Positions 5,344-20,922 of a stretch of 64,000 bases of DNA are shown here, piece after piece. The notes under the pieces are model-generated. The model worked only from the letters and a program-made list of their open reading frames with translations. It was not told the DNA's origin and searched no databases. A program made the position numbers and the translations under genes. Numbering within the stretch: the first letter of the stretch is position 1; the number at the start of each line of letters is the position of its first letter. The stretch is from a virus (taxonomy: Duplodnaviria > Caudoviricetes), in IMG/VR virus record IMGVR_UViG_3300037313_001148, positions 1-64,000 of that record. One strand, given 5' to 3'.

Positions 5344-5555
5344 ATGCATGCACTCATTGAACATGCCGAACTACTGAACAAACGTTCACAACGTCCTAGA
5401 ATCGCTTATACGGCCCGCCACGCTATCGCCGGGCGGGAAGGTAGGATCTATCTACCACACTCCAGGAGATGCCACTACAAGCCAAAGAGAGCCGATTTTC
5501 GCCCGGCCCGGCCGGCAGCCCCAAGCCGGGCCAGGCGAAGTGCATCCATGCACTC
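5344..5555. repeat. intergenic module A, similar to 8919..9129
   Basis: atgcatgcactcattg; tcctagaatcgcttatacggcccg (22/24 identical to module B); ends in gtgcat-cc-atgcac. Confidence 0.65.
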
Positions 5556-6030
5556 AATCGTATATTACGCCAACGACTCGACCGCTAATCCCATTGGGAT
5601 CACGGAAGATCCGGTATCGGTGTCCAGCGCTCAATCCTGTATTAATGTTCCGAAAACTGTCCACATGTTCAACTGCACGTTGTGCCATTTCCAGGGACAC
5701 AATCTTGAAAGTTGTTGACCATGTTTTCCCATGATCTCCCGAGAATTGCAGCACATCCATTGCGATTGGGGAGAAAATGCTATTCAAGTATCTTTCCCGC
5801 CGCGTATCGGCGTCATGCCGTTCCATCATCTCGCAAAATTCCACGGCCATTTCCGCGCCCGACTCCAACGCCAGTTGCGCGGCAAATCGGGAGATCGCAT
5901 AGACGTTGTGAATAATGCCGAAATGAAACCATTTGACGATCTCACGCCGTTTGCTCGGGTCGGAAATCCAAGATTCGAGCATGATCGCCAGGTTGTCCAT
6001 CTTCAGTTGCGAGCTAATTGAAGTTGCCAT
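5554..6030 (-). CDS. hypothetical protein downstream of a solitary CRISPR repeat
   Basis: 158-aa ORF, ggag RBS; repeat ends 27 nt before the ATG. Confidence 0.6.
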   Translation of the reverse strand: MATSISSQLKMDNLAIMLESWISDPSKRREIVKWFHFGIIHNVYAISRFAAQLALESGAEMAVEFCEMMERHDADTRRERYLNSIFSPIAMDVLQFSGDHGKTWSTTFKIVSLEMAQRAVEHVDSFRNINTGLSAGHRYRIFRDPNGISGRVVGVIYD

Positions 6031-6057: not shown

Positions 6058-6088
6058 GTTTCAATCCACGTTCCGCGTGAGAGGCAAC
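6058..6088 (-). CRISPR. solitary degenerate type I-C CRISPR repeat
   Basis: minus strand GTTGCCTCTCACGCGGAACGTGGATTGAAAC (31 nt), similar to the 15384 repeat; no array. Confidence 0.75.
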
Positions 6089-6123
6089 GAAAAGAAGGCC
6101 GGCAAGCCCAATGCTTGCCGGCC
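6089..6123 (-). terminator. intrinsic terminator after the helicase
   Basis: perfect 11-bp stem ggccggcaagc/gcttgccggcc followed by TTCTTTT on the minus strand. Confidence 0.75.
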
Positions 6124-6158
6124 AGTCACATCATCGCTTGCCGGCCGGTTACATCATC
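6113..6158. repeat. 23-bp tandem duplication
   Basis: gcttgccggccagtcacatcatc / gcttgccggccggttacatcatc. Confidence 0.8.
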
Positions 6159-7842
6159 GTTGGGTCAATTGCTCTTCAGTCGTCCCGTTTCGCTTAGGCT
6201 TGGGTTCGACCCAGTAAAGTTCAGACGTTGCGCGGGTGATCGCCACGTAGATCAGGTTGCTCTCTTGCTTCCGTGCCCATGATTTCTTGGCCATCGGGTG
6301 CGGCAGCAACTCGGGATGAAGGATCCAAACCCGCTCCGACTCCAACCCCTTGACACGGTGGATTGTCGAGAGCACGACTCCGGTCGTCTTGTCTGAAAAG
6401 ATCGACAAAATCTTATTCTTGACGTCGTTGATATTTTCGCATCCTTCGGCCAGGACTTTGAGAGTATCGATCCGGTCGGCCAAACGCTGAGACTTGGCTT
6501 CTTGACCGGGCTTGGCCAGCTTGGCGATTTCGCGATTTCCCCAAGCGTCGATGCGCTCCCAAACGTCGCCGTTCTTTTGTTCCCGGCCGATCTTGTCGAG
6601 AAGAGAGCACAAATTCTTGCCGATGTCGCTTCCCCGGATCGTTGCTTTAACGCCGTTGCGGATCAGCGCCATACAATGCTCGGCCAGGGGAGCAGTCGTG
6701 CGACAGATCACCATATCCCCATCTTTGACGTTCTTCATGAAATCGTCTTCCTTGACGTTTTCCACGGTTCCGGGCTTTGCGGTCGGGGACGCTTGGATAT
6801 GGGGAACGATCTCCTGGGCCGCTTCGATGACCTTGGACGGGCAGCGCCAGCAAATCGAGAGAGGGAGTTCGACGGCCGAGAAGTCTCGCACCACGCTATC
6901 GATGGCTTCCGGATCGGCACCCCTAAATCCGTAGATAGCTTGGTTCCTGTCGCCGACGAACACCGCGCGCCCACCGTTTGCCGTCAGCCGCCGGATCATC
7001 TCGACTTGGATCGGGTTCAAGTCTTGACTCTCATCGATAAACACGTACTGATAGTACGTGGGGAACGCCATGTTCTTTGCGATCGGCAAGAGCAACTGAT
7101 CGTTGAAATCGATCATGGTTTCACAATTGAAACCGTCCTCGTATGTGCGAAGAAGCACGTCGAAAAACTTGTCTGTGCTAACTTCTTTGGGATCCGGGAT
7201 GTCGATGTCGTATCGATCGCAAAGTTCCATCACGTCAGCGCGGGTCGGCAGACCACGGATCGCGCCGTAGCCGAACCCCTTGAACAGCGCCACAAGCCGG
7301 CGGATCGGCGGGAGCATCAACGAAAACTCAATCTCATCCTTGCGATTGAGCATGTCATAACCCACGACGCCCTTGGCCACGAAATCGGTCTTGGAGTCGT
7401 TGAGGGTGGGCTTGACCGTCGCATTTTTGAAAACGATCCCCGCGCCGAGGGAGTTGAGGGTCTTCGCGGTGCAGTTCGGCAGAGAGATCCGCGCCGTCAG
7501 TTCTTCGGCGATCACTTTGTTGAATGCGAGCAAAAGGATGTTCGGCCGCTTGCCACCGTAGGTCAGGGCCGCGCAGGCGTCAATCAGTGTGGATGTCTTC
7601 CCCGACCCCGCCACGGCGTTGACGACCGCGTGGCCGCGTCCTTCGAGAAGCCATTGATAGATGTTCACTTGAAAAGACGTTGGGGCGCGGCCGGTCTTCT
7701 TCGTGAGCCGGTCAATCGTGTCAAGTACCAGCGTCGAGTGTTCCGTGGCCGTCTTGCGCTTGCGGTTTTTGGCGGGAGTGATCGCGACGGGGACCGGGCC
7801 AAAGTCGATGGAAGCGTCGGCGGTCTTGCGCTTGCGTGCCAT
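6154..7842 (-). CDS. UvrD/Rep-family SF1A helicase
   Basis: AVAGSGKT, FIDESQD, GDRNQAIYGFRGA, STIHRVKGLE, YVAITRA; start MARKRK at 7842. Confidence 0.93.
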   Translation of the reverse strand: MARKRKTADASIDFGPVPVAITPAKNRKRKTATEHSTLVLDTIDRLTKKTGRAPTSFQVNIYQWLLEGRGHAVVNAVAGSGKTSTLIDACAALTYGGKRPNILLLAFNKVIAEELTARISLPNCTAKTLNSLGAGIVFKNATVKPTLNDSKTDFVAKGVVGYDMLNRKDEIEFSLMLPPIRRLVALFKGFGYGAIRGLPTRADVMELCDRYDIDIPDPKEVSTDKFFDVLLRTYEDGFNCETMIDFNDQLLLPIAKNMAFPTYYQYVFIDESQDLNPIQVEMIRRLTANGGRAVFVGDRNQAIYGFRGADPEAIDSVVRDFSAVELPLSICWRCPSKVIEAAQEIVPHIQASPTAKPGTVENVKEDDFMKNVKDGDMVICRTTAPLAEHCMALIRNGVKATIRGSDIGKNLCSLLDKIGREQKNGDVWERIDAWGNREIAKLAKPGQEAKSQRLADRIDTLKVLAEGCENINDVKNKILSIFSDKTTGVVLSTIHRVKGLESERVWILHPELLPHPMAKKSWARKQESNLIYVAITRATSELYWVEPKPKRNGTTEEQLTQR

Positions 7843-13947: not shown

Positions 13948-15315
13948 ATGGCCATTCTTCGTGCTCTGAACGAATTCACAAAAGAGTCAGTTGTACTTGC
14001 TCTTGAACCTTCACGTCAATGTATCTGCAACTGTACATATTGCTTTGCCTCACTTAATAGCAAATCTCAATACGAGAATAAGAAAAAGGACTTCCGCGAT
14101 CCATCTACATTTGAATTTACTCTAGAGAAAGCATATAGCCACAATTACAATCCCGAAGACTTCCTTCAGTGGGCTGTCCGAAGCCGCCTCGTCCTCGGAT
14201 ACGCCAACACGGTCGAGCCGTTCCAGGATATCGAGCAATCCAAATCTATCCTCAAGGCTTGCGATCATCACTCTATCCCTCTATTCATTCAAACTAAAGG
14301 AATTAACTTCTTTGATGTGTGGTCGCACCTGAAACCGTTCCACGACAATGCGGCCCTGTTCGTCTCGTTTCCGACGATGGACGATCGCGTTCTCCGTCGT
14401 TTCGAGATTGGTACGCCCCTCTCGCTTGACCGGCTTCGCGTGATCGAAACGGCTGCTAATGCCGGATTTCATGTTATTCTTGCACTCTCGCCTTATCATG
14501 AAAAATGGTGTTCAGATCCAGAACAATTTATTCGTATCGCCAAAGATGCTGGTGTTGGCTCCGTGTTCTTCGATCGGCTTCACCTGAATATCAGGCAGCG
14601 CAAGGCAGCCGGCGATAAGGTCATGGTAGACCTGGCTCACAAGACGGAGCATCCCAACTGGCCACCCCTGGCCCTCGAGCATTACGAGCACATCTATTTT
14701 CTGTGCGAAGAACTCGGCCTACCGATCTTCGCTAATGGATCCATCCCGATCCATTTCGGCTGGCCGAACACCCTGGCTACAATCTCTCCAGCCGGCATCT
14801 ATACACGGGGACTGCAATGGACCTATCACGACGGCGACCTGTTCCATAACCTCGATTTCAGTTTCTACGATGATGAATTTGGAGATAAGTTTGATTCACT
14901 GGACGATCCGGCCGACTATGACGGGTCCGATTCGGTTCTGGTTCGCTGGCCTGATGTCATTTCGATCATGGAATCACCAACGCCAATCAATCAGGAGTTC
15001 TCATATTCATCACTGTCTGACTTGATCTCTGTCAAGACCCTGCCGAAGATCTGGATTGATATGCTCAAGCCTCGCGCCCGCCTCTCGGAATACTATCGCG
15101 CGATTTGGAATAATCGATCTCATTCATTTGTATGGCATCATCCATTCATTAAAGTTGCCCTGAAACCTGACGGTACTCCGTGGACTGACGAAGAAGGAAA
15201 TATCATGTCTTTATACGATCCTTGGTTCCAGGTGGACGGCCCTAAAGAGCGTGTCGTGGAAACGGTTGAAGATTTTCGTGTTCTTGAGCCTGAACACGAC
15301 ACCGCTTCGCCTTAA
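13948..15315 (+). CDS. radical SAM protein (spore photoproduct lyase-like)
   Basis: CICNCTYC (CxxxCxxC), EPFQ, IQTKG, FEIGTP..RL motifs; caggag RBS. Confidence 0.8.
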   Translation: MAILRALNEFTKESVVLALEPSRQCICNCTYCFASLNSKSQYENKKKDFRDPSTFEFTLEKAYSHNYNPEDFLQWAVRSRLVLGYANTVEPFQDIEQSKSILKACDHHSIPLFIQTKGINFFDVWSHLKPFHDNAALFVSFPTMDDRVLRRFEIGTPLSLDRLRVIETAANAGFHVILALSPYHEKWCSDPEQFIRIAKDAGVGSVFFDRLHLNIRQRKAAGDKVMVDLAHKTEHPNWPPLALEHYEHIYFLCEELGLPIFANGSIPIHFGWPNTLATISPAGIYTRGLQWTYHDGDLFHNLDFSFYDDEFGDKFDSLDDPADYDGSDSVLVRWPDVISIMESPTPINQEFSYSSLSDLISVKTLPKIWIDMLKPRARLSEYYRAIWNNRSHSFVWHHPFIKVALKPDGTPWTDEEGNIMSLYDPWFQVDGPKERVVETVEDFRVLEPEHDTASP

Positions 15316-15383
15316 CTTGCTCTAGAAATTCTTTGAACAGTCAAGTAGAATCAACCTGTCCCGAGTGGAGTGTAATTACTGAT

Positions 15384-15415
15384 GTCGCCTCCCACGCGGG
15401 GGCGTGGATTGAAAC
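15384..15415 (+). CRISPR. solitary type I-C CRISPR repeat
   Basis: GTCGCCTCCCACGCGGGGGCGTGGATTGAAAC, 32 nt with 7-bp stem and ATTGAAAC end; no second repeat nearby. Confidence 0.88.
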
Positions 15416-15438
15416 AAACAAGAAAGGAGAGACGCCCG

Positions 15439-15798
15439 ATGCCAAACACCACAGGCGGCGCCGCCGTCAGGGAGGCTGTTGGAGCGGGTCTAGCTCACCG
15501 TCTGACCAGTTTCCGCAGCGAACAGGAAGCGCGAGGCTCCAAGCGGCGTGGCAAGCACGGTTACACCGCCGGCGCGACCGAAATCGGTGGCAAGCATATG
15601 ACCGGCCGTCATGAAGCGGCTGCCCGCAAGGCGGTCAAGGGAACGAAGGTTGACAGGCACGGCAATATCAACCTGCGCGGCAAGTCGTCCATGTTCAGCG
15701 AGAAGCTGCATGGCCCGAAGGCTGTCGCCCGAGTTCACAAAAACCGAGTTGCCGCGTCCAGGCGTGTCGCTCGCAAGGGTAAGAAGAAGGCTGGCTAA
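15439..15798 (+). CDS. highly basic 119-aa protein (possible nucleic-acid-binding protein)
   Basis: aagaaaggaga RBS, K/R/H-rich, biased codon use. Confidence 0.75.
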   Translation: MPNTTGGAAVREAVGAGLAHRLTSFRSEQEARGSKRRGKHGYTAGATEIGGKHMTGRHEAAARKAVKGTKVDRHGNINLRGKSSMFSEKLHGPKAVARVHKNRVAASRRVARKGKKKAG

Positions 15799-15895
15799 TA
15801 CGCACAAGCTCACCGGCAGGTGCCGTGCAAATCGGCTAATAACTTACAATTGACCTGTTCGGGACAGGGTTCGGTTACGCCGGGCTTTGCATTCC

Positions 15896-15925
15896 GCCCC
15901 TGGCTTTCCGCCGGGGGCTTTTTTT
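15896..15925 (+). terminator. intrinsic terminator
   Basis: gcccctgg/ccgggggc stem followed by T7. Confidence 0.85.
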
Positions 15926-15941
15926 GTGTCCGGAGCCTCCC

Positions 15942-16973
15942 ATGCCCGCCCAAAGCAAACTCGGCAAAGAAACTTCCCTCCCCATTCACTTGATCGATAA
16001 ATGCGATTTTAATATCAAGATTCCCATACATGGGGTCTACCGGGAAGGCTTGAAAACCTCTCTCGATTACTTCAATGTCCGGGATCGATTGAAGGTATGG
16101 CCGCATCCCAACAAAAAAGGTCGATACATCTACTTGGATGGAAACCAGAGAATTGATCTCATTATCGACCTTCGCGTCCTTGAACAAATCCATGAACATT
16201 TCAATCTAAATCCAGAGCACGAGCATTCCCGTGACCCGGCTGTCCGCAACGAGTACAAAAAGCGGCTACGTTCGATCAAGACTGACCCCGAGAATCAAAA
16301 ACTCCTGGACAGTTTCCGAATCAAAGCTAATCAATCAAATGTAGATGTAGCCATACAGGAAGATCTTGACGAAGACGACGCCCGTCTGTTTGTCGCCACC
16401 TACAACCGCAATCATTCCAAGCCTGACGAAGCCAAGATCGTTTCCCAGGTGGTTGACGTTGTGGCTCAGCACCAAAATAAAAATATGGACATGGTTCGGA
16501 GAATGATTCGCCCCGAGCAAGCCTATATCAATCCACTTCCGCCTCCCGTCAATCCCTTCACGCCTGCTGTTGCCCCCGAAAACCTGACCCCCCTTGTCAC
16601 TGAGACGCCCAAAACTCCCGAACAAATCAAGGAAGAAAAGAACCTTTACGGAGAATGGGGACCGCCGCCGCCCATCGAATCCAGGCCCGATCCTCTACAA
16701 AAAGCTTATATCCCGTTCGGCCCTCTTTCGCTTTCTCGTGAAGGGCACCGAGAAATTTCCGAGCGAATTCTTCGGTGCCAGGCTCGCATCTTCCGTGAAG
16801 AAGTCCTCAAGACGGCCCTCCGGGAGCTTGAGGAATCTCTAGAAGAATCCGGCGATCGAATCGACCCTGACGGCATCGTTTTCGAGATCGCTCTTCGCGC
16901 AATGGGAAAACATATAAAGAAAGAAGAGAAAGAGCAAACGGCACCCCGCCGACGCCGCCGTGAAAATTCTTGA
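15942..16973 (+). CDS. ParB/Srx-like N-terminal domain protein
   Basis: LKVWPHP..YIYLDGNQR..EDDARLFVATYNR. Confidence 0.6.
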   Translation: MPAQSKLGKETSLPIHLIDKCDFNIKIPIHGVYREGLKTSLDYFNVRDRLKVWPHPNKKGRYIYLDGNQRIDLIIDLRVLEQIHEHFNLNPEHEHSRDPAVRNEYKKRLRSIKTDPENQKLLDSFRIKANQSNVDVAIQEDLDEDDARLFVATYNRNHSKPDEAKIVSQVVDVVAQHQNKNMDMVRRMIRPEQAYINPLPPPVNPFTPAVAPENLTPLVTETPKTPEQIKEEKNLYGEWGPPPPIESRPDPLQKAYIPFGPLSLSREGHREISERILRCQARIFREEVLKTALRELEESLEESGDRIDPDGIVFEIALRAMGKHIKKEEKEQTAPRRRRRENS

Positions 16974-20493: not shown

Positions 20494-20922
20494 ATGTGTT
20501 TGCCAATAGCCGTGAAACATCCTGAGCGGGTGCTTGGCAAAGGCGAGCACGCTGGGTTTGAGTGGATGGTTCTTGCCTCTCCTTTCGGGTTTCGCTGCGG
20601 CTACACCCGCGTCCCATCGGGTCATCCGTGGTACGGAAAAAAATATCCTGATATTGATGCATGCGTTCATGGAGGATTGACGTTCACCTCATACGATTTA
20701 GCGTGCGACGCGCCTGGACCTGATGACGGATACTGGGTAGGATTCGATTTTGGCCACGGCGGGGACGGTTCTGATCCTGAGATTAGCCAATCTGTTTCTC
20801 CTGTAATTCTTGACCTGTACGATTTTCCAGGGTCGCACATCTGGACACAGCAGGAGGCTGAGCAGGAGTGTCGGAGCCTGTGCGAGCAAGCCCGCGCCGC
20901 CTCGGAGTTATCTCGTACATGA
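20494..20922 (+). CDS. conserved phage hypothetical protein
   Basis: FRCGY..HPWYG..VHGGLTF..WVGFDFGH pattern. Confidence 0.7.
   Translation: MCLPIAVKHPERVLGKGEHAGFEWMVLASPFGFRCGYTRVPSGHPWYGKKYPDIDACVHGGLTFTSYDLACDAPGPDDGYWVGFDFGHGGDGSDPEISQSVSPVILDLYDFPGSHIWTQQEAEQECRSLCEQARAASELSRT

Follow-up and report, generated by a model that had tools for sequence, protein, structure and literature searches.

The genome of an uncultured phage (Caudoviricetes; IMG/VR record IMGVR_UViG_3300037313_001148) raises the question of why a virus should carry an intact type I-C CRISPR repeat, set by itself in front of a small gene. The record is linear, comprises 90,669 bases and is estimated to be 78% complete; the window analysed here is its first 64 kb, and coordinates are window positions unless "genome" is stated (Table 1). 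Solitary repeat units (SRUs) have been found to inhibit CRISPR-Cas systems by acting as RNA anti-CRISPRs (Racrs), an activity shown for nine such units covering several CRISPR types (Camara-Wilpert et al., 2023; PMC10651486), in an article whose cited literature attributes the first listing of SRUs to Faure et al. (2019). The repeat considered here, SRU1, is on balance probably a viral unit of the Racr kind directed against type I-C systems and placed in the 5′ leader of a small mRNA.

Table 1. Coordinates of the SRU1 unit and of the other repeat mimics of the phage.
Feature	Position	Strand	Description
Radical-SAM gene	stop at 15315		upstream of the SRU1 unit
Promoter-like site	15323-15351	+	TAGAAA-17 nt-TAGAAT (-10 box at 15346-15351); 9/12 consensus matches
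Inverted repeat, 5′ arm	15355-15364	+	CCTGTCCCGA; perfect, 10 bp; partly upstream of the inferred transcription start
SRU1	15384-15415	+	GTCGCCTCCCACGCGGGGGCGTGGATTGAAAC, 32 nt; stem 15386-15392/15398-15404, loop 15393-15397, handle 15405-15415
Ribosome-binding site	15424-15431	+	AAGGAGAG; 7 nt before the ATG
ORF119	15439-15798	+	119 aa, pI 11.8; orphan rich in A, G, R and K
4-bp hairpin	15822-15836	+	gccg-TGCAAAT-cggc; weak
Inverted repeat, 3′ arm	15859-15868	+	TCGGGACAGG; perfect, 10 bp; overlaps hairpin 15865-15889
Hairpin in 3′ UTR	15865-15889	+	11 pairs; predicted
Intrinsic terminator	15896-15925	+	9-bp stem with 8 G-C pairs (hairpin 15896-15918), then seven T
ORF158	5554-6030	-	158-aa orphan led by SRU2; no family match
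SRU2	6058-6089	-	decayed copy of an SRU1-type repeat
Possible fifth mimic	genome 67817-67847		more diverged
SRU3	genome 70542-70574		perfect 8-bp stem, 4-nt loop
SRU4	genome 85785-85817		perfect 8-bp stem, 4-nt loop

SRU1 is present as a single copy in the window and in the record as a whole. An exact-match scan over one genome per prokaryote species located sequences identical to it at all 32 of 32 positions only as repeats of two CRISPR arrays: that of a Kiritimatiellia MAG, where the stretch examined contains 26 exact copies, and that of a Granulicella MAG, with 33 exact copies, giving 59 over both arrays; the two MAGs belong to different phyla. Both arrays lie downstream of a Cas8c/Csd1 gene, 3-4 kb away, whose Pfam score is far above the cut-off. 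Since identical repeats sit in arrays beside Cas8c/Csd1 genes, SRU1 is a genuine type I-C repeat, and the preliminary description of an intact 32-nt repeat at 15384-15415 was correct. Against the array-bearing genomes the repeat yields BLAST scores of 54-69 bits, above the threshold of at least 41.1 bits that SRUFinder applies to matches with a known repeat of defined subtype (PMC10651486), and it retains both the repeat hairpin and the expected processing site that characterize SRUs. Its match to the Rfam family CRISPR-DR9 is weak (21 bits, under the family cut-off).

The repeat is intergenic in the virus record, between the stop codon at 15315 and the ATG at 15439; an in-frame ATG at 15382 lacks a ribosome-binding site, and it is the ATG at 15439 that is served by one, AAGGAGAG. 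No partial or degenerate second repeat occurs within 100 nt on either side of SRU1 or of three further units of the same genome (SRU2, SRU3, and SRU4), which rules out a mini-CRISPR array in which two repeats flank a spacer. The nearest of the other mimics is at least 9 kb from SRU1. The repeat had been described as solitary, which is accurate for its surroundings but not for the genome, where there are three more clear mimics and possibly a fifth. Profile searches of the 90.7-kb record, 78% complete, found no gene for Cas8c, Cas5d or Csd2, so that cas5c, cas7c, and cas8c are absent from it, and the Cas8c model, used as a control, does score in both array-bearing MAGs. Within a 661-nt region containing the unit, the repeat alone is common to the array-bearing genomes, neither spacer nor leader being shared, and a captured leader or array end is thereby ruled out as the origin of SRU1. 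The matching arrays of the two MAGs supply 109 spacers, none of which matches the phage.

Folded alone, SRU1 forms a 7-bp stem with a 5-nt loop and leaves free an 11-nt tail, UGGAUUGAAAC. Tails of this type become the 11-nt 5′ handle of type I-C crRNAs after Cas5c/Cas5d processing. Because published I-C processing leaves an 11-nt 5′ handle, Cas5c would be expected to cut SRU1 RNA between 15404 and 15405, i.e., after G15404. In its native context the canonical hairpin has a predicted probability of only about 2%, and the minimum-energy fold of the transcript replaces it by pairing the 5′ arm of the repeat with 15470-15476. This low value is not special to SRU1, since the hairpin fares alike when the flanks are shuffled (median 3.9%) and in genuine copies of the same repeat in the two arrays (n = 57; median 5.7%). 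An anti-repeat pairing of the SRU1 arm with 15459-15476 and with the leader was likewise considered and set aside as nothing special, shuffled flanks and genuine array repeats being equal in this respect.

The transcription unit in which the repeat is embedded had been portrayed as self-contained and closed upon itself, with a -10 box, a terminator, ends joined by an inverted repeat, and a T-loop-like hairpin. The terminator at 15896-15925 is borne out, with its hairpin at 15896-15918 and seven T. The TAGAAT at 15346 is present, and TAGAAA stands 17 nt upstream of it, but as a promoter the match is no better than chance, one promoter-like match being found in the region against 1.3 expected by shuffling. 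If this site is used, transcription would begin near 15358, about 7 nt beyond the -10 box; transcripts may also reach the unit from the radical-SAM gene, because no terminator lies between the stop of that gene (15315) and the promoter-like site. The perfect 10-bp inverted repeat exists as described. A perfect inverted repeat of at least 10 bp is found somewhere in the unit in 17% of dinucleotide shuffles, and one between the first 40 nt and the last 110 nt in 0.5% of them, a frequency that is suggestive but attached to a definition chosen post hoc. A start near 15358 would moreover delete about the first three bases of the 5′ arm (15355-15364), and the 3′ arm overlaps a predicted local hairpin. 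The hairpin at 15822-15836 also exists, but it is weak, comprising four pairs, bears a G in place of the second T of a T-loop in its loop TGCAAAT, and has no second copy above chance level in the window. As a whole, the 568-nt transcript folds unremarkably (z = -1.37; 10 of 100 shuffles fold at least equally well), and the 3′ UTR (15796-15925; z = -2.77) is the sole part more structured than its shuffles. The picture of a closed, end-paired RNA is consequently not upheld. The unit does stand out as a GC-rich island, with about 62% GC compared with 47-50% in both flanks, and the repeat could thus be a passenger on acquired DNA, a reading that is taken up below with the sister copies.

The gene that SRU1 precedes encodes a very basic protein of 119 aa, and the statement that the repeat ends 23 nt before its ATG at 15439 is confirmed, as is the basic nature of the product (pI 11.8). 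ORF119 has no match in Pfam, PHROG or the PDB; a word search of 5.8 billion clustered proteins and a full HMMER search of 1.8 billion representatives recovered only the protein itself and one weak partial match, to residues 42-83 in comparison with a 5070-aa protein (E = 6.7e-8, 33% identity), which was read as compositional. The identical ORF119 is encoded on four other contigs. Searches of viral contigs, and of a phage database by protein and by DNA, revealed no relative, and a protein atlas held sub-threshold look-alikes only. The atlas model of ORF119 is of low confidence (pLDDT 0.42), and the product is predicted to be disordered. At 0.178 per codon, ORF119 has a codon score in keeping with long phage ORFs (0.19 +/- 0.045); the two other sense frames across the same stretch score about -0.3. 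The in-register antisense frame (107 aa) has a coding-like score equal to that of the sense frame and possesses neither ribosome-binding site nor promoter; the case for ORF119 therefore rests on its ribosome-binding site, on the orientation of promoter and terminator, and on the strand of its neighbours. No family matches were obtained for the other reading frames over the SRU1 unit. Taken together, ORF119 is quite likely to be a real gene. Neither it nor the neighbouring genes match a known family, and it resembles no known Acr; it is likely co-transcribed with SRU1 and, by analogy with acr-racr operons, may be its protein partner.

The preliminary description had also proposed that Cas5c opens the closed RNA and so switches on the basic protein. 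This is unsupported, as the ribosome-binding site of ORF119, which is strong and among the clearest in the region, already occupies a mostly unpaired loop in the minimum-energy fold, and as the pairings between repeat and flanks equal those of shuffled flanks and genuine array repeats. The layout instead suggests that Cas proteins on the SRU1 leader would cover the ribosome-binding site and not expose it, which reverses the sign of the opening model.

SRU1 has sister copies elsewhere in the genome. The record contains exactly four copies of GGATTGAAAC, where simple arithmetic leads one to expect about 0.2, and all four lie inside CGTGGATTGAAAC, each preceded by repeat-like sequence. The phage thus has at least four dispersed type I-C repeat mimics that share an invariant 13-nt 3′ end, CGTGGATTGAAAC. 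SRU2 has GCCTC(T)CACGCGG and CGTGGATTGAAAC in common with SRU1; its 3′ arm and stem have been lost, and it folds no better than its shuffles. Beginning directly after the terminator of a helicase gene, it stops 27 nt short of the ORF158 start codon, an ATG. SRU3 and SRU4 have stems that differ from that of SRU1, and from one another, by paired, compensatory changes (the third pair has gone from C-G to U-A, and the two loop-proximal pairs are U-A versus C-G), and their hairpins are predicted in context at 96-100% probability. Both are preceded by a promoter-like site of the form TTGACT-17-nt. Repeats of the SRU3 or SRU4 type were absent from 802 sampled genomes of the two MAG phyla, and the exact SRU3 repeat was not found in viral contigs. 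A set of mimics with one handle and different stems looks like a means of raising dosage or of covering several I-C variants.

These copies bear directly on whether SRU1 is a neutral passenger or relic, acquired along with GC-rich foreign DNA or by recombining with a host array, and devoid of any function of its own. Such an origin would suit the compositional island (62% against 47-50% GC) and the 10-bp inverted repeat at the borders of the unit, and the decayed SRU2 demonstrates that copies do decay in this phage genome. Yet SRU1 is itself 100% intact, the repeat is all that is common to the array-bearing genomes, with no spacer or leader having accompanied it, and the three other mimics keep the same 13-nt end, two of them with perfect stems maintained through paired changes. 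Compensated stems and a conserved end are hard to obtain without selection and count against a relic, which is accordingly an unlikely explanation.

A 23-nt direct repeat, its two copies differing at one position, flanks SRU3, which lies outside the window. On the upstream side the copy covers both the spacer and the -10 box of the promoter-like site of SRU3 itself, and consists of TTC followed by 22 nt that match the sequence directly after SRU3 with one mismatch, at position 3. Judged from its sequence, the guide-like stretch of SRU3 has a partial protospacer beside a correct I-C TTC PAM in its own promoter. The downstream copy, combined with the TTGAAA of SRU3 itself as a -35 element, makes a second promoter-like site. 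The 18-nt core of the direct repeat, taken from the SRU3 promoter, had 12 matches in metagenome contigs, all with unrelated flanks and hence attributed to chance. The self-match of SRU3 is the oddest feature seen in the genome.

By analogy, the layout of SRU3 would correspond to the partial-match repression logic of the CreR type, here aimed at the phage's own promoter (10.1101/2024.10.29.618823). It is conceivable, though improbable, that the phage employs host I-C proteins as regulators of its own genes, in a circuit that would sense free Cascade and throttle the decoys and certain proteins. The grounds for this idea are that I-C handles directly precede the ribosome-binding sites of ORF119 (SRU1) and ORF158 (SRU2), that the guide-like sequence of SRU3 matches its promoter beside a TTC PAM, and that the TTGAAA of SRU3 would be the -35 element of a duplicated second promoter.

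A related and narrower proposition for SRU1 is that host Cas proteins control ORF119, so that its translation would be confined to conditions in which I-C proteins are lacking or exhausted: the cut mRNA would begin with the handle, and a Cas7 filament extending over the following 35-40 nt would mask the ribosome-binding site and ATG. It agrees with the position of two of the four mimics, whose ends lie 23 and 27 nt upstream of a start codon and which have a ribosome-binding site in the would-be guide, and with SRU3, whose guide-like match to its own promoter, complete with TTC PAM, indicates that a mimic can be wired to gene control. However, the intergenic regions of phages are short, so that closeness to a start codon is expected by chance, and SRU3 and SRU4 lie 87 and about 200 nt, respectively, from the next gene. 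The leader, furthermore, has no excess structure and no closed ribosome-binding site, and ORF119 has no known function that would give such sensing a meaning. We regard control of this kind as doubtful at best.

The handle of SRU1 could also be the beginning of a one-repeat guide RNA, in which the sequence following the repeat would serve as a crRNA spacer, either in a Cracr-like regulator directed at a host cas or toxin promoter or in an inter-phage weapon directed at sibling phages that have a PAM where the repeat sits here. The 11-nt handle is intact, viral crRNA-like regulators do exist for type I-C (preprint 10.1101/2024.10.29.618823), and SRU3 in the same genome fits the design. The search for a target speaks against it, as in the phage the sequence downstream of SRU1 finds at best a 16-nt run, at 20592 (-), when one real mismatch is tolerated and each sixth position is disregarded, and no TTC PAM adjoins this run. 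Neither the cas loci nor the whole genomes of the two candidate-host MAGs, from which the true host may differ, gave a PAM-flanked seed match, and no target and no sibling with the SRU1 junction sequence was found among metagenome contigs. There is also no second repeat, which type I Cracr arrays appear to have (10.1101/2024.10.29.618823), and the would-be guide is simply a ribosome-binding site plus start codon. A guide function for SRU1 is therefore very unlikely.

Of the readings considered, the Racr-type decoy, which the preliminary description had offered as one of two alternatives, explains the locus best: the repeat is exact and intergenic, has neither a partner repeat nor cas genes, is preceded by a promoter-like site, and has sister mimics elsewhere in the genome. 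On this model, the phage would transcribe SRU1 as the first part of an mRNA of about 570 nt that ends at the terminator (15896-15925), with initiation at the promoter-like site (15323-15351) or, alternatively, with transcription reading through from the radical-SAM gene. As the phage is without cas genes, host proteins alone could recognise the SRU1 RNA. Host Cas5c would bind the hairpin and tail and cut after G15404, yielding a 5′ fragment with the hairpin at its end and a 3′ fragment headed by the 11-nt crRNA handle. Cas5c, Cas7, and Cas8c would then assemble on these RNAs, devoid of a useful guide, and so be diverted from the phage-targeting crRNAs of the host. The decoy reading is strengthened by the sister mimics, with their compensated stems and invariant handle. 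It is weakened by a promoter match at chance level, by a canonical SRU1 hairpin at about 2% in context (though genuine repeats are likewise low), and by the position of SRU1 ahead of a 360-nt ORF, unlike described Racrs. The host side also detracts from it, given that 0 of 109 MAG spacers match the phage and the two MAGs span different phyla. No syntenic relatives of the phage were recovered when the radical-SAM gene, the downstream gene of 343 aa, the helicase, and ORF158 served as queries.

RNA anti-CRISPRs were demonstrated only in 2023, and few have been examined in their native genomes. This phage offers a series that runs from one exact copy through two variants with compensated stems to a single decayed copy, in three layouts: an mRNA leader, a unit with its own promoter, and a unit that possibly represses its own promoter. 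It would therefore make a test bed for establishing which parts of an I-C repeat Cas5c needs and whether phages link decoys to the regulation of genes of their own. Should the ordinary reading alone be true, SRU1 is one more candidate on a list of more than 2,000; it is the multi-copy set, together with the self-matching SRU3, that makes the genome stand out for bench tests.

Among known systems, the closest likeness is to the Racrs. RacrIF1 is processed by Cas6f and titrates Cas proteins in an aberrant Cas6f-Cas7f complex, and the type I-C representative, RacrIC1, from a Bifidobacterium prophage, is co-transcribed with acrIC5 (PMC10651486). Described Racrs are small non-coding RNAs or lie downstream of an acr gene; a nearby acr gene is a reported enrichment for SRUs and not a requirement (PMC10651486). 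Many I-C units from IMG/VR viruses appear in the supplementary table of that study, and the exact SRU1 sequence was not found among those I-C units in the part of the table that was covered. SRU1 shares with RacrIC1 and other Racrs a lone, host-type repeat that is intergenic and viral, without cas genes or an array, and with a promoter-like site upstream; with RacrIC1 in particular it shares the I-C type and a place on a predicted common transcript with a small protein gene. It differs in that RacrIC1 lies 11 nt downstream of acrIC5, whereas SRU1 is upstream of ORF119 as a 5′ leader, and in that its partner is a very basic orphan and not a known Acr. The phage moreover has its I-C mimics dispersed over four or five sites, with stems that differ.

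A second point of comparison is provided by Cracrs, viral crRNA-like regulatory RNAs that mimic host CreR/CreA (Liu et al., bioRxiv 10.1101/2024.10.29.618823), and for which the screen, as we read it, required a match of 9 PAM-proximal bp to the spacer portion of known CreA/CreR RNAs. The likeness consists in a repeat-derived RNA, encoded by a phage, with which host Cas proteins would be loaded, and in the partial, PAM-flanked 22-nt promoter match of SRU3. The differences are that SRU1 has no second repeat or detectable target, and that the target of SRU3 would be a promoter of the phage itself, as opposed to a cas or toxin promoter of the host. Virus-borne mini-CRISPR arrays (PMC11656645) resemble the present case in placing CRISPR repeats on a virus without cas genes, and differ in their repeat-spacer-repeat arrangement, the units of this phage having no second repeat within 100 nt. 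The SRUs of this phage are thus most likely a well-formed type I-C example of the known decoys of the RNA anti-CRISPR type, and not a new kind of element.

Two variants of the type I-C CRISPR repeat (…GCCTCCCACGC… and …GCCCCCCACGC…) are mixed in the arrays of both the Kiritimatiellia and the Granulicella MAGs, the bacterial genomes whose arrays contain repeats identical to SRU1, the exact repeat in the phage. The variants occur there in similar proportions (26:14 and 33:20, respectively) despite the assignment of the two MAGs to different phyla, a pattern suggesting either that the I-C locus was transferred recently or that the binning is wrong. In the Kiritimatiellia MAG there is, in addition, another I-C locus, whose repeats represent a third variant.

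In the phage, the SRU1 unit is followed by a gene whose 343-aa product has no family match and contains a YLDGNQR motif, which we see as recalling N-terminal domains of the ParB/sulfiredoxin type. The sequence GCCTCCCATGC (window 15935-15945) lies at the start codon (ATG at 15942) of this gene and agrees with the 5' arm and loop of SRU1 (15387-15397) in 10 of 11 bases, a likeness that is probably due to chance. The repeat mimic SRU2, on the minus strand, begins directly after the T-run of the helicase terminator and is therefore without a promoter of its own; upstream of it, a tandem duplication (gatgatgtaaccggccggcaagc / gatgatgtgactggccggcaagc; window 6097-6160, minus strand) runs into this 11-bp terminator.

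Coordinates of the gene following SRU1 and of repeat mimics in the phage record
Feature	Position in locus	Position in record	Remark
343-aa gene after SRU1 unit		window 15942-16973	
Possible fifth I-C repeat mimic, diverged	L027:3817-3847	genome 67817-67847	outside window
SRU3 region with 23-nt direct repeats	L006:1443-1540	genome 70507-70604	outside window
SRU4 region	L007:1381-1510	genome 85688-85817	outside window; I-C repeat mimic

SRU4 has a perfect stem of 8 bp closed by a GCGA loop, with a promoter-like TTGACT-17-TACAAT approximately 70 nt upstream and the next ORF approximately 200 nt beyond; for the sequence downstream of it, the search for a guide target gave no match. Judged by its sequence, a further candidate is possibly a fifth, diverged mimic, with a 7-bp stem (CGTCCTT/AAGGGTG) and a tail, CGAATTGAAAC, in which the crRNA 5' handle is altered at two positions.

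A 23-nt direct repeat lies on either side of SRU3. Its upstream copy consists of TTC, the PAM of type I-C, and then 22 nt that agree, except for one mismatch at position 3, with the sequence directly 3' of SRU3. This copy covers the -10 box of a putative promoter, TTGACT-17-GATATT, that would drive SRU3, and a second promoter-like site is formed by the repeat's own TTGAAA together with the downstream copy. This arrangement of motifs gives the SRU3 unit the appearance of a guide unit that represses itself in the manner of CreR.
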